From the NCBI GenBank assembly GCA_030606485.1, contig JAUWGH010000007.1, positions 120,001 through 152,000 on the forward strand: 32,000 nucleotides of DNA. The letters are read 5' to 3'. The position numbers were made by a program, and so were the translations under genes. Source of the DNA: Promethearchaeota archaeon. GTDB lineage: Archaea; Asgardarchaeota; Lokiarchaeia; Sigyniarchaeales; SOKP01. The notes under the pieces are model-generated. The model saw nothing but the letters and a program-made list of their open reading frames with translations. It made no database searches and was not told the DNA's origin. This document shows positions 7,446 through 17,261 of this stretch, piece after piece (positions within the stretch are counted from its first letter, which is position 1; each line of letters opens with the position of its first letter).

Positions 7446-8066
7446 TTGCCGATATTAACACCAGAGGATGAGATAGATTTAGCAAAATTTGAAGTAGAAC
7501 TCGTAAAGAATTGGAATAAAATGATTGGTTCTCAAAAGAGTGTCACAGCAACGCATATGAAATTATCTGACCTTATAATCAAAGAAAATTCTGCAAGAGA
7601 AGTTTTTTTAAGAACTGCTAGAGATGTGTATAAACAGATGAAAGTACTAGCAAGAGAAAAAATGTCTAATATCGATGAGAACGATGGGAAAATAATTCAA
7701 AAAATAATTCATGATAATGAAACAATATATGAAAATAATAAAAAATTTCTTAACGCCATAAAAGATCTAGGATTACAAAGAGAATATCTACATAAAGAAT
7801 TTCAAGAATTAACTGAAGCATTAAAGGATGTATCTTCAAAAAGAAAAGCAGTTGTTCATAAAGCTTTAAAAATCGAAATATCAAAGAATAAATTAATTGA
7901 AGGAGAGAAACTAGAAATGTTGGACCAAGAATTTAAAAACATACAAAAGGAGTTTGACAGATCTAAAGGACGTTATTTGAAAAAAGTTGAACATATTGAA
8001 TCTACGAGGAATGAAGTTAATTCTTTATGGAATAAATTAAAAGATTCTACTATGGGATTTGACTGA
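7446..8066 (+). CDS. All-helical coiled-coil protein, candidate BAR/IMD-like domain
   Basis: 206 aa of long amphipathic helices with no catalytic motifs; TTG after SD AAGGT. The BAR call is inference from length and helical pattern. Confidence 0.5.
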   Translation: MPILTPEDEIDLAKFEVELVKNWNKMIGSQKSVTATHMKLSDLIIKENSAREVFLRTARDVYKQMKVLAREKMSNIDENDGKIIQKIIHDNETIYENNKKFLNAIKDLGLQREYLHKEFQELTEALKDVSSKRKAVVHKALKIEISKNKLIEGEKLEMLDQEFKNIQKEFDRSKGRYLKKVEHIESTRNEVNSLWNKLKDSTMGFD

Positions 8067-8180: not shown

Positions 8181-8597
8181 ATGATAAAAATAGCCGAAGA
8201 ATTTAATTCAATGTTAGCTGCAACCCGGAAAGCACCACTAGATGAAAAACTCAAAGGACTTGCAGATATCATTGAAAGTATAATGCAAATTGTGTTAAAA
8301 ATTCCTAATTTGGTAGATCAAAGCTTAACTATTATAAATTCAAGAATTTCTTCAATTGAAGGAAGGCTCACTTCACTGGAAACAAGAACTGCTCAAGGAG
8401 CTACGGCTGTATCAGCAGGAGCTGGAAGTCTGCCTCGCTCCCCAGGAGCTCCACCACCTCCGCCAGGAGCGCCTCCACCACCTCCGGGACGTCCACCCGC
8501 TGGTCCTGAACCAGCGAGTGCAGCTAATCCAGTTTCTTTAAGAGGGGCCATCATGGGCGAATTGAAGGAATTATTCTCAAAAAGAAAAAAGATATAA
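8181..8597 (+). CDS. Coiled-coil + polyproline + C-terminal amphipathic helix protein (WASH/WASP-like architecture)
   Basis: N-term heptads, PGAPPPPPGAPPPPPGRPP, C-term SLRGAIMGELKELFSKRKKI. The CDS is certain; function is inferred. Confidence 0.7.
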   Translation: MIKIAEEFNSMLAATRKAPLDEKLKGLADIIESIMQIVLKIPNLVDQSLTIINSRISSIEGRLTSLETRTAQGATAVSAGAGSLPRSPGAPPPPPGAPPPPPGRPPAGPEPASAANPVSLRGAIMGELKELFSKRKKI

Positions 8598-8877: not shown

Positions 8878-10653
8878 ATGCAGAATATGACTGAAAATAC
8901 AAAAACAGTAAAAGTAATACATGATTCTCAGAGGAAAGTTCTAGAAATTATATCCTTATTACGAGTGATGAATAATTACTATGGGAAAAAGAAGGATATT
9001 CAAAAGAAAATGAAACCAATTGTTTTAAAAAGATTTAAAAAGAGTATAAAAGAATTAGAAGAAAATTCCGATTGGTTATTTTCTGTTCCGAGCACACTGG
9101 ACTCTTTAAATTTAGAATTTATGAAAAAAAATGATGCTTTTCGATTTCCCGATGCAATACATTTATTTGAGGCATGGATGAATCTTGGGATGGATGCTGT
9201 TTTTCCACGAGTTGCATTTAACTTTGATTTTCCAGGTGTATTACCAAATGAAAAAAAAAGGTCTGTATTTCAGTTTATTTATAATTTTTCTCGTGGATTT
9301 GGTTTTCCAATCATTTTTAATCCCACATTTTATGAACATGATATTGGTTTATTGAGATTTCTTAATCCATTATTAAAATGGGGCTATACTGTTTTTCACA
9401 AAGTAAATCAAGCGAATTCTCTTGTTGAAAGACGTTTTAATTTAAATAGACATCATCCTGGAGAATTTGAATTTGTTATAATTTCAGAATTTAAAGATGG
9501 ATTTAAAGGAGTTGACACACTTTTACATGGATATAAAATAAAAAAACCAAAATTAATCGGAAATTATGATAATTTAAATCAAGCCTTAGAAGATATTGTA
9601 TTTTCTTATTCAATAGGAGATCATGCAATGAGTATTTTGAAATATAAAGGGCAAAGATTTAAGGAAATCCCCCTTATCGATAATCATTTTATTAAAAAAA
9701 AATATGATATTGATTTTTACTCTTATATTAAAAAATTAATCTCGACTAATAACGCTATTACTCAAAGAATTAAAGAATTAAGAAAGGAAATCACACAAAA
9801 ATTAAAGGAATTTTCACTTATTGATAAAATAAGATTTAGATTAAGGAAAGGTAAAGTTATTCCTTTATCTAAAGACTTACAAAAAGTTAAAGATATTGAG
9901 TTTAAAAAAAATATCTTAGATAAAATTAGACAAAAATTATGGACTACTCCATTATATACTCATACAGTTCATTCACCTAAACAATATAAGCTCAGTTATA
10001 CTCAAGAGGAAAATGATTTAGATGAATTAGGACAAGAAGAATCTGATTCAATCTTGTTAAAATTAGTAAGGAAATATGGAAAAAAATATAAAATCGAGTT
10101 CAATGAAGAAAAAATCATCAAAAAGCTTGAGGAATTAAGAGATGATATGGCAAAGATGTGGTTATATTTTAAAGAAAGACATCTTAATTATGCAAAAAGA
10201 AAAATGATGAAAATTACTACAATGTCTGTTAATGATCCTAATTATAGAGAAAAAATATTAAAATTAGTAGATGAATTGATACCAATTATAACAATTCATG
10301 AGATTTTTATACGACCTTTATCAGATTCTGTTTATCCAGAATCTATACCACAAACTCAAAAAATGTGGTCTTATCTCGCAACATTCTTAAGTTCTAAGTA
10401 TAATCCAATGGGTGTTAGCTTAATTAAAACCTTCAATCGAATAGCATACCATAGATGGGCTTATTTTTTCAAAAAGAAAAATATAAAATTTAATCATTAT
10501 TTCGATTATTTTATAAAATTACCAATTTGGGAAAATATCCCAGATGAAATTATGAATTGTTTTAAATCTTATCCAAATGAAAAGATTATTTTCGTCAAAA
10601 ACCCAAAACAATCAATAAGAAATAGAGTTTCCAAATTAAAAGAGAAATTTTAA
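8878..10653 (+). CDS. Hypothetical protein, 591 aa, largely helical
   Basis: Long ORF with genome-typical codon usage; no motif recognised. Confidence 0.85.
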   Translation: MQNMTENTKTVKVIHDSQRKVLEIISLLRVMNNYYGKKKDIQKKMKPIVLKRFKKSIKELEENSDWLFSVPSTLDSLNLEFMKKNDAFRFPDAIHLFEAWMNLGMDAVFPRVAFNFDFPGVLPNEKKRSVFQFIYNFSRGFGFPIIFNPTFYEHDIGLLRFLNPLLKWGYTVFHKVNQANSLVERRFNLNRHHPGEFEFVIISEFKDGFKGVDTLLHGYKIKKPKLIGNYDNLNQALEDIVFSYSIGDHAMSILKYKGQRFKEIPLIDNHFIKKKYDIDFYSYIKKLISTNNAITQRIKELRKEITQKLKEFSLIDKIRFRLRKGKVIPLSKDLQKVKDIEFKKNILDKIRQKLWTTPLYTHTVHSPKQYKLSYTQEENDLDELGQEESDSILLKLVRKYGKKYKIEFNEEKIIKKLEELRDDMAKMWLYFKERHLNYAKRKMMKITTMSVNDPNYREKILKLVDELIPIITIHEIFIRPLSDSVYPESIPQTQKMWSYLATFLSSKYNPMGVSLIKTFNRIAYHRWAYFFKKKNIKFNHYFDYFIKLPIWENIPDEIMNCFKSYPNEKIIFVKNPKQSIRNRVSKLKEKF

Positions 10654-10657
10654 AAGA

Positions 10658-11389
10658 TTACCACTCTAGGAATCCTGGGTCATCAAAAACCTCTTCAAGC
10701 GTTTTATCTTTTGCTAATTTTTCTTCTACTTCTATTTCTTCCTCAAGATCAACGCCAATATCTTCTTGTTTTATTTTTTCACGTAATTCTCTTTCTAATA
10801 ATTTATAGTTTGCTGCTTCATCTCTCCATTTATTAGATTCTTCTAGTAATTCTTCTTCTCCTGTTGAAATATATTCTTTAGATAATTCTGAGGCTTTCAT
10901 TTTTGTAATATCTGATAGAAGCGAATAAGTTAAAGCTAATTCACTCCAATTTTTCTCTTTTTCATGTTCTTTTATATTTCCTTTTAAACGATGATATTCT
11001 TGATCTTTAAAATATAAATCAATAAATGACCCATAAAAATCTACAGCAGCTTCAATAGAACGGGCTAAAACCTCTTTTTGTAATCCGCAAGTTCCACATT
11101 TAACTTCAACCAAATTGACAATTTTATCCTTTAATTCTGTTTTTTTTAATTTTCCGCCACAAATAGAGCAGTTTTTTACATTTTCTCCGTTTATATCATA
11201 TAAATCATTTGCTGAGCGTAAATTTGCATCCCATTCTAGCCCACAATCAATACATTTTATAGAATATGCAATTAATTTGATCTTCTTCTCTATTTTAACT
11301 GATTTAGCCCCGCACTCAGGACATGTAAAAATTTTAGGAAGTTTTTTTATTTTCCGGTAAACTTTTTTCCTTTTCTTCCTTCGACCCAT
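10658..11389 (-). CDS. elf1: Transcription elongation factor Elf1-like protein with duplicated Zn-ribbon core and long C-terminal extension
   Basis: MGRRKKRKK...KLPKIFTCPECG start and CGTCGL...AVDFYGSFIDLY end of core are Elf1 signatures. It has four CxxC motifs and is 243 aa. Confidence 0.85.
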   Translation of the reverse strand: MGRRKKRKKVYRKIKKLPKIFTCPECGAKSVKIEKKIKLIAYSIKCIDCGLEWDANLRSANDLYDINGENVKNCSICGGKLKKTELKDKIVNLVEVKCGTCGLQKEVLARSIEAAVDFYGSFIDLYFKDQEYHRLKGNIKEHEKEKNWSELALTYSLLSDITKMKASELSKEYISTGEEELLEESNKWRDEAANYKLLERELREKIKQEDIGVDLEEEIEVEEKLAKDKTLEEVFDDPGFLEW

Positions 11390-11607: not shown

Positions 11608-12714
11608 TTGGAAGAAATGGAACAGCATAAGCAATTATCCATTGAAGTAGATAAAAATCTTATTAATAAAGTGTTTGAAAATGTAGAGATGCGCTATATT
11701 CTATTATATCTTTACATACTTCGAAATGATATGTTAAAAAATTTATCAGATGAATCTTGGCTCAATTCATTTAAACGATTAATGAATTTGGATGAAATTC
11801 TCAAAAGCGATTTGGAATTATATTCAAATAAAGAATTGACCGAAATTTTAATAGATTTAAGAATAATTAAAAATTTAAGATCTTTGAAAGAACTTGAAAA
11901 GAAAGAAGATGATTTTTTAATTAAAATTTTGGAACCAATAAGAATTGAAGAGAATAAAATAATTGTTCCAGAAAATACATTATTTCCAATTATCTCAAAA
12001 AACTTTACATTTTTAACAAAACGAAATTTTCACTATGCCATCTCAAGGTTAAAGGGTATTATGTGCGAAAATAGTGATGTAATTCATCCTTTTCTATTTG
12101 AAATTGGTAAGGAAAATTATTTATTAGCAGACGATCTGTATGAAATTTTAGATGATTTAGGAAATCCATATCAAACGATAAAGGTCGAAACCACAATTAG
12201 TGAATTTTATAACAGATTTAAAGAATTATTAGAAAAAGTCTCCAGTTTCATAGAACTATATGATCCTTTATTAAATAAAAAATCACATATCAGAATTATC
12301 AAAAAGGCAATAGACAATAATAAAGTCATTCTTGAATATATGCAAGAAAACGTAAAAAAATTGCCTGCTAAATTTGATCTGGAGGAAGTTACAGATAAAG
12401 AAAATGAAATTTTTAAAAAATGGCATTTAATACTTATAAATTTACTTAAAAAACGGAATAGATTAAATGAAATTGATGAAGAATTAAGTAAAATTAAAAA
12501 TTACTATTCTGGAAAGGGAAAAAAATATACCTATTTAGAATTTATTACTAAAATATCATACAATGAAGATAATATCTTAAACCAAATTAAAGATAAATTA
12601 ATAATATTAAGAGAAGAATTAGTAAATATCAAAAAAGAAGTATCTAAATTTGAAAAAAATGAAATAAAGCTGCTTAATTTAGATTATGAACGATATAGAA
12701 TTATAAATGAGTAA
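11608..12714 (+). CDS. Hypothetical protein with central winged-helix-like segment and C-terminal coiled coil
   Basis: ENTLFPIISKNF-LTKRNFHYAISRL...FLFEIGKENYLLA gives a helix-helix-wing pattern, followed by heptads. The start could be ATG 11617. Confidence 0.75.
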   Translation: MEEMEQHKQLSIEVDKNLINKVFENVEMRYILLYLYILRNDMLKNLSDESWLNSFKRLMNLDEILKSDLELYSNKELTEILIDLRIIKNLRSLKELEKKEDDFLIKILEPIRIEENKIIVPENTLFPIISKNFTFLTKRNFHYAISRLKGIMCENSDVIHPFLFEIGKENYLLADDLYEILDDLGNPYQTIKVETTISEFYNRFKELLEKVSSFIELYDPLLNKKSHIRIIKKAIDNNKVILEYMQENVKKLPAKFDLEEVTDKENEIFKKWHLILINLLKKRNRLNEIDEELSKIKNYYSGKGKKYTYLEFITKISYNEDNILNQIKDKLIILREELVNIKKEVSKFEKNEIKLLNLDYERYRIINE

Positions 12715-12730
12715 ATAAGAAAGGTGCTCG

Positions 12731-13702
12731 ATTATTAAATGCCCTGTTTGTAACGTTGAGATGGAACAACTCGTTCAAGAAATATTTCAATGTCCAAAGT
12801 GTAAAAAAATAATTAAAGGACGGATTAAAGAAATTGAAAAAAAGAAAGAAGTTGCTATTGGAAAAATTCAAGAGGGAGATTATTTTCATAACAATGCTAG
12901 TTTAAATAAGAAATATGAAATTTGTGAAAAAGGAATTACCATTTCTAAATCCCCAAATAGGTGGGTGGCAGCATTACTCTGTCATAGCTCCTATTTAAGC
13001 AGTTCTAAATATATTAGACTTAGTTGGTGGAAAAAAGAAATAAATACGCATGCAGGCTTTTTCAAAATAACTGAATCTGCAGTATTGAATAATTTAATCA
13101 AAACCTTAGAAAAAATAAATTATTCATTTGACGAATATTGGGGTAATTTTAAAGGATTTGAAAAAAAAAAAAAAGAAACAAAAGAAAAAGCAATTCAAAA
13201 TAAACGCTTAAAAATTCTAAAATATAGAATTCTCGAAAAAAAAATTTGCCCGAATTGTAATAAAAAATTAAAATTTACCAAAAGAAAAACACATTATGAA
13301 TGTGAACATTGTGGTGAGATCATCATCTTGGAATCTCATAATGAACCAATTTTTAATATTGATCCTAAAGATCTCCCATTAGAATTCTCCACAAATTTTC
13401 CTATCAACTTTTACCTCCCCATAGCTGGCATCACTATTAAATGGTTAATGGGAGAATGGAAATCTGTTGTTGTAATATATTCAAATGACAATCCCAATAG
13501 GAAATGGCTAAGATTTTATTCTTGGGAAAGAAATTTACAACAACTATTAAAATACGGATATTATGAAGCTGGTGATGGAGGACAACTATCTTGGACTACA
13601 AAAAAAGGAACAGGCTCACCAAATATTAACGATAAATCAGAAGTCCCTATTTTAATTGATGCTTTAAAAAAATTACAAAAAGAAATAGGTTGGGCTAAAT
13701 AA
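12731..13702 (+). CDS. Tandem (Zn-ribbon + PC4-like) repeat protein; probable ATT start (track start 12761)
   Basis: In-frame upstream IIKCPVCNVE completes the first Zn ribbon with CPKC. The second ribbon is CPNC...CEHC. Two internally similar GITI...W...K.(I/L)R...W...LI.(T/A)L domains follow the ribbons. Confidence 0.75.
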   Translation: MIKCPVCNVEMEQLVQEIFQCPKCKKIIKGRIKEIEKKKEVAIGKIQEGDYFHNNASLNKKYEICEKGITISKSPNRWVAALLCHSSYLSSSKYIRLSWWKKEINTHAGFFKITESAVLNNLIKTLEKINYSFDEYWGNFKGFEKKKKETKEKAIQNKRLKILKYRILEKKICPNCNKKLKFTKRKTHYECEHCGEIIILESHNEPIFNIDPKDLPLEFSTNFPINFYLPIAGITIKWLMGEWKSVVVIYSNDNPNRKWLRFYSWERNLQQLLKYGYYEAGDGGQLSWTTKKGTGSPNINDKSEVPILIDALKKLQKEIGWAK

Positions 13703-13740
13703 GATAAAATTTTATGCAAAAGATTAAGGTGATTAAATAA

Positions 13741-14883
13741 ATGAGTGGGATCGATAATCTTGAATGGGAAAAATTACTTACTGAATTCTCTAAAAATGTT
13801 GATAGATCTATTAAGAAACTAGAAGAAAGAGATATTGATAATATTCCTGGTGCTAAGCAAGCCTTGATCGAACGATTGAAAGTAATGAGAGATTATTTTC
13901 CACAAAATAATGGAGATCTCTTTATAAAATTAATTAATGAGAAAATTCAAAATGCTTTTTTCCCAAAAACTAAAGATCTGGCTGAAGCATTTGAGCTTAT
14001 CATAAAATCTCGCTCTCATGATCAAGATTTTATAATAAATGAATTAATTAACGGTTTTATATCATCAAGAAGTAAAACAATCGCTTTAAATGTTCAAGGA
14101 ACTATTATTGATAGATTGGTTGAGGCGTTTAGTAAAGGTCCCGATTTTCAAATTGTAGATCATCAATTTTACGCAATGTTTTCTGATCCGAATAAAGCAC
14201 GTAAATATGTAAAAGAGAGTTTGCAAGATCTTGTGGATTTATTCGGTTTAGAAGCAAAAGAATTAATTGTTGAAAAAGATAAAAGGAAAAGCGAGCGAAA
14301 AGTTTATACTTTTTACACGTTTCCCGAAAAAATATTAGAAATCTTAGAAGGTGAATATGTTGATACTGATGAAGTACTCGGAGAAAAAAGGGTTTCAGAA
14401 AAATTCGATAAAACAGTTTTCATATCTTTGTTTTTAGCCAATATCTCAGTTCACAGAGATAATTTAAAGAAAATAGGTGGGGTCTATACTGTAAACGGCA
14501 TCTGTAACATATTTAGTTTGATTTTTTTGATCTCACTTTTGCCCAAAGTGGATGTAATTGAGACCCATCCAATTCTTAGAGACCCTTCATACGATTCCGA
14601 TAGGATGAGCGTTATTCCCAAATCTTGGATGATGAAAGAGGTGTTGTTAGACTTATTGGAGCCGCTCATGAAGATTTTCGCCTATCGATTGGGTGGTGGA
14701 GAGTGGTTGAAATCAATTGACACAACAGAAGCTAGAAGAAAGATCCACAACCAAACTCGCTTTCTATTGAAGGATATAAACCGCTGGATTCTCGGGGAGT
14801 TGTGTCGTGTCGAAATTGATATATTCGTGAGTATAGGCTCAATATTCGCCGAAGTAATAGTAGATACTTCCAGTGAAGATTAA
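13741..14883 (+). CDS. Hypothetical protein, central region possibly MAGE/kite-like
   Basis: ATG after SD AAGGTGA. ESLQDLVDLFGLEAKEL and KTVFISLFLANI resemble MAGE/Nse3 WH-A and WH-B segments (inference). Confidence 0.75.
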   Translation: MSGIDNLEWEKLLTEFSKNVDRSIKKLEERDIDNIPGAKQALIERLKVMRDYFPQNNGDLFIKLINEKIQNAFFPKTKDLAEAFELIIKSRSHDQDFIINELINGFISSRSKTIALNVQGTIIDRLVEAFSKGPDFQIVDHQFYAMFSDPNKARKYVKESLQDLVDLFGLEAKELIVEKDKRKSERKVYTFYTFPEKILEILEGEYVDTDEVLGEKRVSEKFDKTVFISLFLANISVHRDNLKKIGGVYTVNGICNIFSLIFLISLLPKVDVIETHPILRDPSYDSDRMSVIPKSWMMKEVLLDLLEPLMKIFAYRLGGGEWLKSIDTTEARRKIHNQTRFLLKDINRWILGELCRVEIDIFVSIGSIFAEVIVDTSSED

Positions 14884-14908
14884 ATTAAGAATTTAGAGGA
14901 AGATTTTT

Positions 14909-16165
14909 ATGGTTAGAGAAAAATGGACAGACATTTTAGCAAGATACTTAACATATTTAAGTCATCTGATTCCAATCCTCAAAGAAACAAAAAAAACCGT
15001 CCAAGATATGAGTTTGGAAGTGATGATGACCGTAAAAATTTTTGATAAGATTAAAATGGAAGAAGAAAAAAGATTAGTGAAGAAAGTGAGGGCTTTATCC
15101 GAATTCTCGGCATATTATAGAGGAGAAATATTTGAATATATCAAAAATTTTATCTACAAATATTCTGAGGATTTAGAATCTATAGATATTAAAGATTATC
15201 TAATTGAATTTTTTGATGAATGCATAAATGCTTTAGAAATATTAACGAATATTACAAATCCCGATCAAGAAAAGTTAGATTCCACATATTTATATCTTCT
15301 TTACAAATATTTAGAAGATCGATTATTACCCATTGGTAAAAATTTTCAAGAAATCTATACAAAGTTGATTAAGACATCAGAAAATTGGTATGAATGTCAT
15401 AGGTATATGATGATCCCTCAGACATATTATCGAGAAACTGTGGATAACCCTGATTTTTTCGAAATTCCTGGTATTTCTCCAAAGTTATACCAAATAATTA
15501 ATAATATAACCTCTTTATACAACTTGGATCCTAATTATTATCCTTGTCCTGAAGATTCTAACAAAGAAATTCCAGTAGTCTTGATTAATGATGTTTTTGA
15601 AGCATTTATTGATAATATTGCTCATGAAGAGCAAGAAGCAATTGAAAAAATTTGTGAACGCTTAGGATTAAGAGTTCTAGATGGGATTTTTCTTGCTCCC
15701 AAGTATGATTTTATAGATGTGTTAATTAAACATGATTTCATAAGAGAGAATAAACAATCTGATGGCAAGATTAGGTTGATACCTCAATTCAGTAATGAGA
15801 CTCTAATTTTAAGTTATCTTACCTTCGTTTCTTTCCGTCGAGGTTTTTTATCTAAAGAATTAATTAATTGGATTTCTATGACATTTGCATTTATTATTTT
15901 TTCAACTATTTTAAAATCTCAATTAAGTGATCATAATATTTTCTACCCGATTTTTACTAGTTTAAAAACTCAAGAAAAAGTAATACCTTATATGATGAAA
16001 CTTCTATGCTTTAATAATTATTTAAAATTAGATAGGATGAAAATCCGGGATTCTGTCCAATACAGAAAAGAGATTTTTAATTTTGCAGGTTCTAGCATAG
16101 ATTGTATTAAACAACTAATTTTAGATTTAAGTGAATATTTAAATGAAATAATAAAAAAAAAATAA
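14909..16165 (+). CDS. Hypothetical helical protein, 418 aa
   Basis: ATG after SD GAGG; possible WH segment DFIDVLIKHDFIRENKQSDGKIRLIP. Confidence 0.8.
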   Translation: MVREKWTDILARYLTYLSHLIPILKETKKTVQDMSLEVMMTVKIFDKIKMEEEKRLVKKVRALSEFSAYYRGEIFEYIKNFIYKYSEDLESIDIKDYLIEFFDECINALEILTNITNPDQEKLDSTYLYLLYKYLEDRLLPIGKNFQEIYTKLIKTSENWYECHRYMMIPQTYYRETVDNPDFFEIPGISPKLYQIINNITSLYNLDPNYYPCPEDSNKEIPVVLINDVFEAFIDNIAHEEQEAIEKICERLGLRVLDGIFLAPKYDFIDVLIKHDFIRENKQSDGKIRLIPQFSNETLILSYLTFVSFRRGFLSKELINWISMTFAFIIFSTILKSQLSDHNIFYPIFTSLKTQEKVIPYMMKLLCFNNYLKLDRMKIRDSVQYRKEIFNFAGSSIDCIKQLILDLSEYLNEIIKKK

Positions 16166-16184
16166 AGAAGGGGTGTAAGAAAAA

Positions 16185-17261
16185 ATTACATATTCAGATG
16201 ATGAAATTAAAGAAAGGCTTGACAAGTATGGAACGGTTTATTTACCAAATGAAATATTAGAGAATGTTGATGATATATTGGGAAATGAGGTTCTAAAGGA
16301 AAGGCTTGAAGATTTTTTCAGTTCGCTAAAAAGATATAGTGAAGTTGTTGAAAAATTGAAAAAGACGAAATTAGTTCCAAATTTAACTGTCCTCCTATAT
16401 GGGCCACCTGGAACTGGAAAAACTTCATTAACTCGAGCATTTGCAAAGGAATTTGATATCCCATTGTGTGTAGTGGAGTCTGACAGATTAGTTTCTGCAC
16501 TATTAGGTGATACCGTTAAAAATATTAGAAAAGTAGTGGAATTATCAGCTCAGATTGCGGAAGAAAATGGAGCTTTTATATTATTTTTTGATGAAATTGA
16601 CGCGATTGCATCCGAAAGATCGAATATTCACGAAGTAGGCGAAATTAAAAGAGCTGTAATATCTTTCTTACAAATAATTGATAAAATAAATTACTTTGGA
16701 ACACCATTAGCAATTATAGGTGCTACTAACCATCAAGACCAATTAGATTCTGCAATATGGAGAAGATTCACTTTTCATTTGAAATTTGATTTTCCTTCAT
16801 TTCATCTCAGGAAAAAAATAATTGAGTCCTTTATTAATAAAATTAGTAGCGCAAAAATTGGAGTAGATGATGTAATTCTTGGTAGTTTAAACAAAGAGTA
16901 TGAGTTATTAAAAACTAAGGAAGAAAAATTAAAATCTTTAATGAGTAAAGAGAAATCCATACTAGATTCGAATGCATTATGGGATGACAAAAAAATTATC
17001 GAAAATAGAGGAATTTTATTTTCAACGCGTGGATACACAGGTGCAGATTTAGAGCGTGGAGTGAGAGTTGCTCTGTTTAAAGCATTAAAATCTGACATTT
17101 TAACTTATGAAAATTTCGTCCATTCCTTAGAATTAGTAGGAGGTACTAGAATCCATGTTGAACAACAATATTTTTTGAGTGCTTCTGAAAGAAAATATTC
17201 CGGGGATAAAAAAATATTAAGAATAAACCGTAATAATCTTGAAGGTCCTCGTGAAATTTAA
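16185..17261 (+). CDS. Single-domain AAA+ ATPase (classical AAA clade); probable ATT start (track start 16278)
   Basis: Walker A GPPGTGKT, Walker B ILFFDEID, SRH IIGATNHQDQLDSAIWRRF, YTGADLE. The N-linker ENVDDILG lies partly upstream of the track start. SD AGGGGTG is 9 nt before ATT 16185. Confidence 0.93.
   Translation: MTYSDDEIKERLDKYGTVYLPNEILENVDDILGNEVLKERLEDFFSSLKRYSEVVEKLKKTKLVPNLTVLLYGPPGTGKTSLTRAFAKEFDIPLCVVESDRLVSALLGDTVKNIRKVVELSAQIAEENGAFILFFDEIDAIASERSNIHEVGEIKRAVISFLQIIDKINYFGTPLAIIGATNHQDQLDSAIWRRFTFHLKFDFPSFHLRKKIIESFINKISSAKIGVDDVILGSLNKEYELLKTKEEKLKSLMSKEKSILDSNALWDDKKIIENRGILFSTRGYTGADLERGVRVALFKALKSDILTYENFVHSLELVGGTRIHVEQQYFLSASERKYSGDKKILRINRNNLEGPREI

Follow-up and report, generated by a model that had tools for sequence, protein, structure and literature searches.

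Asgard cells build actin-filled protrusions and crawl, and to our knowledge no factor that promotes the assembly of their actin has been found so far. Whether a small protein of a Promethearchaeota archaeon may be such a factor is the question raised by the window analyzed here, a stretch of 32,000 nucleotides (assembly GCA_030606485.1, contig JAUWGH010000007.1, positions 120,001 to 152,000 of the forward strand). The open reading frame (ORF) at window positions 8181-8597 of the plus strand is a complete coding sequence of 138 amino acids plus stop, and a preliminary description of the window had taken its product for a minimal WASH/WASP-like protein. Our analysis shows that its layout of coiled coil, polyproline tract and end helix is genuine, strongly conserved and no chance feature, and belongs to a conserved, Asgard-wide family that is undescribed in the literature searched. 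As a new finding, coil and end helix also form the C-terminal end of more than 500 Arf/Rag-like GTPases. Kinship with WH2, WASP, WASH or WAVE proteins is not supported by the profile comparisons, and actin is a tentative candidate for the partner of the end helix.

According to the ORF reading, the homologues and their phyletic spread, the gene (8181..8597, +) encodes a stand-alone member of the family, in which a coil, a proline-rich part and an end helix follow one another. The AlphaFold2 (AF2) model, obtained with an alignment of 33 sequences, contains no globular domain. It starts with a short helix at residues 2-17 (8184..8231, +) and continues with a long helix at residues 20-77 (8238..8411, +), both at predicted local distance difference test (pLDDT) values of 86-94. 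The start of the protein, A-E-E-F-x-x-F/M, is conserved, and E7 and F8 are almost invariant in alignment A1 of the family. The long helix corresponds to the putative coiled-coil hub: it carries an invariant I-P-x-L-x-D motif (Pro42), and its residues 46-77 make up about four clean heptads. The best matches of the family profile in the PDB are solved trimeric coiled coils (trimeric adhesins, E 2.5e-6), which agrees with the heptads that had already been noted in the N-terminal part.

The flexible linker and the polyproline tract of the preliminary description were likewise recovered. Residues 78-116 (8412..8528, +) form a disordered, proline- and glycine-rich linker with pLDDT values below 50 and 17 prolines per 35 residues. 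Its core at residues 88-106 (8442..8498, +) reads P-G-A followed by PPPPPGAPPPPPGRPP at residues 91-106 and thus contains two GAPPPPP repeats (residues 89-102) of the GP5 type, resembling GP5 profilin ligands. Matched by eye, the core also fits the class II SH3 pattern PxxPxR. Prolines 94, 95, 101 and 102 are conserved in the family alignment. Since the proline stretch is an island of 68% GC in a window of 27% GC, its prolines are kept by selection against the compositional bias.

The third part, a putative docking helix at residues 117-138 (8529..8594, +), opens with P-V and continues as SLRGAIMGELKELFSKRKKI at residues 119-138. AF2 predicts a helix at residues 117-137 with pLDDT values of 70-80, in keeping with the terminal helix seen before. 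The protein ends with KRKKI, and the absence of an acidic tryptophan tail is thereby confirmed. Some orthologues, including those of Ca. Lokiarchaeum ossiferum and of a closed 4.4-Mb genome, carry 2-11 aspartates directly after the helix, again without tryptophan; this tail belongs to the clade of Lokiarchaeum and Prometheoarchaeum.

A word-indexed homologue search returned 50 relatives (E 6e-35 to 1e-12), the named ones being metagenome-assembled genomes of Promethearchaeota, Lokiarchaeota or Thorarchaeota, and an exhaustive search of representatives at 50% identity gave 88 matches. With the A1 profile, members were detected in 239 of 400 genomes of the phylum, mostly in single copy. Among them are 122 of the 134 genomes of the taxonomic family to which the window genome belongs, together with genomes of other orders and classes, some of only 1.3-1.4 Mb, and a copy is present in the closed genome of L. 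ossiferum B-35. Conservation is highest in the end helix, where the mean column identity in A1 is 0.90, followed by the N-terminal part (0.75), the linker (0.67) and the coil (0.52). Invariant columns of the end helix are L120, R121, G122, I124, M125, E127, L128, K129, L131, F132 and R135. Among 51 diverse members of the superfamily the end motif is R-x-x-φ-φ-x-E-L-K-x-L-F-x-K-R-K, with E and L invariant and K kept in more than 90%, and E-L-K persists without change even where the rest of the protein is only about 25% identical. The exceptional conservation of this helix and of its E-L-K core argues for a specific partner protein that is itself highly conserved.

Distant homologues of 400-480 amino acids consist of an Arf/Gtr1-RagA-like G domain followed by helix, coil, linker and end helix of the family. 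Two such fusions are encoded in the genome of the window: one of 412 amino acids that ends in ...VLNELKELFQKRKKVNY (L018:1492-2727, equal to G000:C5:287945-289183, +), and one of 469 amino acids (L021:1246-2652, equal to G000:C8:37645-39054, +). Each has a helical N-terminal domain of about 130 amino acids without a Pfam family. A scan of all ORFs of the genome found the terminal motif in exactly three proteins, the stand-alone form and these two. With the 412-residue fusion as query, 543 relatives were obtained at E<=1e-10, covering 96-99% of the query length, and the terminal motif was present in 120 of 120 fusion relatives among the matches listed. The G domain is structurally closest to the RagA-like Lokiarchaeota GTPase 8yl2 (E 1e-16). 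The short N-terminal helix is a feature of the stand-alone forms; the fusions lack it, and their matches begin at about residue 17. In the largest fused subgroup the linker is not rich in proline, indicating that the conserved core of the module consists of coil and end helix and that polyproline is frequent, not obligatory. In the AF2 model of the 412-residue fusion (alignment A3) the module has pLDDT values of 38-67 and the tail is not confidently docked on its own G domain. The genes flanking the two fusions included no informative neighbor.

A terminal helix of this kind could also serve as a membrane anchor. Like the C-terminal membrane helices of MinD and FtsA, it is amphipathic and basic and sits at the very end of the protein, behind a flexible linker. 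It has a hydrophobic arc and a net charge of +3 to +4. The stand-alone protein would in this case be a membrane-tethered coiled-coil spacer, and the same helix would anchor the fused GTPases. In these GTPases the helical domain of about 130 amino acids takes the place of the amphipathic N-terminal helix by which Asgard Arfs attach to membranes, which would fit such a function. However, the hydrophobic moment is moderate (0.33-0.38) and is reached by 22% of shuffled sequences, and the helix is far better conserved than is usual for anchors of the MinD/FtsA kind, its near-invariant E, K and G positions across the phylum being unusual for lipid-binding helices. Moreover, the aspartates that directly follow it in the Lokiarchaeum/Prometheoarchaeum clade should repel anionic lipids. 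We consider a membrane-targeting helix a serious though less likely alternative.

We favor, tentatively and by analogy, a small multivalent adaptor that would use its end helix to dock on actin in a WH2- or DAD-like way. The N-terminal helices would oligomerize into a coiled-coil hub, probably a trimer, from which each chain would extend a flexible proline- and glycine-rich arm of about 40 residues. At the tip of the arm, the nearly invariant amphipathic basic helix Rxxφφx-ELKxLFxKRK would be the docking peptide for a very conserved partner. Since hub and tip together are also the C-terminal output of Arf/Rag-like GTPases, the tip may be an address label shared within an Asgard network of GTPases and cytoskeleton. 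Among possible partners, Lokiactin with the hydrophobic cleft at its barbed end is the leading candidate; the helix might bind this cleft in the mode of WH2, WASP-C and formin-DAD helices, with its hydrophobic face in the cleft and its basic cluster on the acidic surface of actin. The stand-alone protein would then bring together several actin monomers or filament ends as a VASP-like factor, and its proline arms would be spacers or weak profilin or SH3 ligands. Oligomerization, the function of the tip in docking and, most of all, the choice of actin are inferences. The Lokiactin of the genome itself (L005:1498-2637) has 380 amino acids, is about 60% identical to eukaryotic actins and is 79-96% identical across the Asgard sequences in alignment A2. 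According to a preprint on the motility of L. ossiferum, gelsolins and profilins are the only known regulators of Lokiactin (bioRxiv 10.1101/2025.11.30.690169).

Three further actin-family genes on contigs C1, C10 and C7 (L006-L008) match PF00022 with 292, 231 and 153 bits, respectively, and possibly encode actin-related proteins.

The comparison with known actin factors rests on layout. In eukaryotic nucleation-promoting factors (NPFs), polyproline recruits profilin-actin, while WH2 and C helices bind actin. Read by eye, the pattern R-G-A-φ-φ-x-x-φ-[KR] with the basic cluster after it resembles WH2, C and DAD helices; R-G-A-I-M-G-E-L-K and its basic cluster show this likeness of motif class to the helices of the N-WASP WH2, the WASP C region and the formin DAD. 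A close parallel in design is Ena/VASP, which shares an oligomerizing coiled coil (predicted in the Asgard protein), (G/A)PPPPP repeats of the type used to recruit profilin-actin, and a short amphipathic basic helix on a flexible chain, which in Ena/VASP is the WH2-like motif for G-actin. In the Asgard protein, however, the parts come in the opposite order, the coil being N-terminal, EVH1 and the F-actin-binding motif are absent, and there is no detectable sequence kinship. The EVH1 profile PF00568 had no match in the genome, and the control genomes gave none either. The DAD of formins, an amphipathic helix of the M-x-x-L type with a basic cluster downstream of polyproline, binds actin monomers. 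In pattern, the DAD and C-terminal tail of formins are similar to the end of the Asgard protein, where a helix of this type and a basic cluster at the extreme C-terminus follow the polyproline, but the Asgard protein has no FH2 domain. The VCA part of WASP, WASH and WAVE shares with it the polyproline followed by the R-G-A-φ-φ-x-x-φ-[KR] helix and K-R-K and, in some orthologues, an acidic tail in the form of poly-aspartate. In contrast to these proteins, the Asgard family lacks the WH1, SHD or WAHD head and the tryptophan of the acidic tail, and the protein of the window has no acidic tail.

A number of results weigh against docking on actin and have to be set beside this analogy. No WH2, WASH, SCAR or WH1 match was found in Pfam for 33 close (E<=1) and 55 diverse members (E<=0.1), nor were the N-terminal heads WH1, WAHD1 or SHD among the Pfam matches of these 88 members. 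Ten isolated C-termini gave nothing relevant in Pfam even at E<=10, and PF02205 had no match in the six-frame translation of the genome at E<=1. When the profile of the end helix was compared with all PDB sequences, a set that includes many WH2-actin and VCA entries, no WH2, WASP, WASH or other actin-binding helix was found, and only a designed coil and two chance matches were returned. The leucine of the WH2 signature LKKV is missing when the helix is read by eye. The proline tract, being absent from the largest GTPase-fused subgroup, is inessential to the module. Outside the order of the window genome, no actin, profilin or gelsolin gene was found in the neighborhoods of the family gene. Taken together, the proposed likeness of the tail to WASH, WASP C and WH2 helices is not supported as kinship. 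What remains of the WASH/WASP-like protein of the preliminary description is the three-part layout, which is analogous to that of VASP/WASP-type factors, with no detectable membership in those families.

The N-terminal helix had also been likened to the coil of the WAVE/WASH homology domain. If it were a true remote homologue of BRICK1/HSPC300 and CCDC53, the family would be ancestral to parts of the eukaryotic NPF complexes. All of these are short proteins around one coiled coil that forms trimers, as is predicted here, and in CCDC53 the coil is followed by a proline-rich middle part. The BRICK1 chain 3p8c_E matched profile positions 27-75 at E 0.17, and the CCDC53 profile PF10152 matched one fused relative, P0120, at E 4.9e-4 (21 bits against a cut-off of 24.6) and 4 of the 55 diverse members, the best at E 0.0026. 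However, all of these scores are below the cut-offs, unrelated coiled-coil families scored higher and more often (Baculo_PEP_C in 27 of 33 and 14 of 55 members, DUF1664 in 12 of 55), and the trimeric adhesins also scored better. Neither BRICK1 nor CCDC53 has a counterpart of the conserved end helix. Foldseek found no match below E=1, and the ESM Atlas contained only the unnamed clusters of the family itself. The likeness of the N-terminal helix to the WAVE/WASH coil was therefore not upheld, and homology to BRICK1 or CCDC53 appears very unlikely.

The coil profiles also brought up baculovirus P10, a protein of about 100 amino acids in which coiled coil, proline-rich part and basic tail stand in the same order as in the Asgard protein. 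By analogy, the latter might be a self-assembling structural protein that forms fibrils or condensates through contacts between its acidic N-terminus (AEEF) and its basic C-terminus. With the NPV_P10 profile, 9 of the 33 close and 7 of the 55 diverse members gave sub-threshold matches, which we regard as coiled-coil noise. P10 is a viral protein of insects without the ELKxLF motif, while the Asgard module also occurs as an appendage of GTPases that lack the AEEF start. A structural role of this kind is highly improbable.

Actin docking can further be judged from published work on profilins and from the proteomics of L. ossiferum, which on balance speak mildly against it. Loki and Odin profilins reportedly do not bind the polyproline of VASP, and binding by the Heimdall LC3 and Thor profilins was weak, with Kd values of 0.3-3 mM (PMC8410842). 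The failure of the Loki profilins weakens the idea that polyproline recruits profilin-actin in a Loki-type organism. When the protein identifiers of the motility preprint are matched to NCBI accessions, the offset between the two drifts slowly. GNAMCCOK_02218 (24.01 kDa) fits NEF87_002200, an Elf1-like protein of 24.03 kDa, and the gene of the latter lies directly upstream of the family gene in L. ossiferum. The next identifier, GNAMCCOK_02219, is thus probably the family orthologue; it was detected in 16 of 16 proteomes with a mean log2 intensity of 18.5 (bioRxiv 10.1101/2025.11.30.690169). It was not among the listed rows of the Lokiactin co-immunoprecipitation, which span log2 ratios from +4.5 to -1.06 in a table with 841 further rows. 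Within that limit, this is mild evidence against a stable complex with actin. On the side of actin docking, the product of the Elf1-like neighbor was enriched among the listed rows (log2 1.36, adjusted p 0.034), as was an Arf GTPase (log2 1.34). This Arf (329 amino acids, 38.12 kDa, L027:13000-13989, -) was rejected as an orthologue of the fused GTPases: without the motif, and as only one among many Arf-like paralogues, it provides no link to the fusions.

A different protein partner is about as likely as actin. The end helix may dock on a conserved non-actin protein, such as a roadblock- or longin-type protein that regulates the Arf/Rag-like GTPases or acts as their effector, an MIT-type domain or a further hub, and the family would then be an adaptor of the GTPase network without a direct role in the cytoskeleton. 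This possible function would suit a module that serves more than 500 Arf/Rag-like GTPases, with a G domain closest to a Loki RagA-like protein, as their output domain; with its occurrence on GTPases, more partners come into question. The invariance of the charged residues E127, K129 and R135 speaks for specific recognition, and neither the absence of actin-related neighbors and profile matches nor that of GNAMCCOK_02219 from the listed co-immunoprecipitation rows would be surprising. On the other hand, no such partner has emerged as a candidate, and the fused tail was not confidently placed on its own G domain by AF2. For an MIT-type domain, the MIM1 pattern (D/E)xxLxxRLxxL(K/R) was compared with the end helix by eye; the hydrophobic spacing fits, but the positions of Arg and Lys do not. 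The AF2 model has no ESCRT-III core, and no MIM-bearing chain was returned from the PDB by the motif profile.

Two other partners were considered and rejected. Mimicry of an FtsZ tail was dismissed, as the C-termini of the two FtsZ proteins of the genome are unlike the motif. A tandem double-SH3 protein of the eukaryotic type could read PxxP sites; it has 119 amino acids, with SH3_2 at 54.5 bits and SH3_1 at 37.3 bits in Pfam, both above the cut-off, and its gene (G000:C6:252776-253135, equal to L030:2277-2636, -) is on the contig of the window, at a distance of about 100 kb. As a general partner that reads PxxPxR it was discarded, since a search with it as query gave no counterpart in five other family-bearing Asgard genomes.

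Despite these alternatives, docking on actin retains interest. A family that is phylum-wide, probably expressed in a cultured species, built like an assembly factor and fused to GTPases is a concrete candidate for an assembly factor of Asgard actin. In its most specific form, the proposal would make ELKxLF-KRK an archaeal G-actin-binding motif, the trimer the first Asgard factor for actin elongation or nucleation, and the fused GTPases GTP-switched actin assemblers. By analogy with the eukaryotic factors this is conceivable, though rather improbable. If the motif did bind actin, the fused GTPases would represent a one-polypeptide forerunner of the activation of NPFs by small GTPases in eukaryotes. 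Should the partner be a protein other than actin, the common end helix would still be a new docking motif that ties a large GTPase family to a conserved hub. The finding that the module is an output of GTPases therefore raises its interest while widening the choice of partners.

The neighborhood of the gene is conserved only at short phylogenetic range. In the taxonomic family of the window genome the order is Pelota, radical SAM, a helical protein of 206 amino acids, the family gene, sometimes a gene for 551-591 amino acids and, on the other strand, an Elf1-like gene. Five genomes of other classes have unrelated housekeeping genes around the family gene, and no conserved neighborhood was found there. 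The Elf1-like gene of the window (10658..11389, -; PF05129, 8.8e-16) encodes a zinc-ribbon protein whose long, acidic and helical tail ends in GFLEW. Its adjacency to the family gene was observed in L001, L003, L015, L016 and L017. In three closed genomes of the sister family it lies directly upstream on the same strand, so that the adjacency is conserved across the order while the orientation is not.

The 206-residue protein upstream (7446..8066, +), identified by synteny and ESM Atlas features, is all-helical, has no Pfam family and is possibly BAR-like; as a lead only, it comes closest in its language-model features to the BAR, FAM92, Bin3 and Arfaptin clusters of the ESM Atlas (0.81-0.87). 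It was rejected as an obligate partner, since it is adjacent only within the taxonomic family of the window genome and is located elsewhere in L. ossiferum. Between the family gene and the Elf1-like gene, a protein of 591 amino acids without a Pfam family is encoded at 8878-10653 (+). Its gene is found in the window and in L003 and is absent from that place in L001, which represents an insertion or deletion within conserved synteny. Beyond the Elf1-like gene, positions 11608-17261 (+) encode four proteins without clear Pfam families, one of them with a zinc ribbon, followed by an AAA ATPase, and this segment is syntenic in L001, L003 and L017, the last being a closed genome of the sister family.
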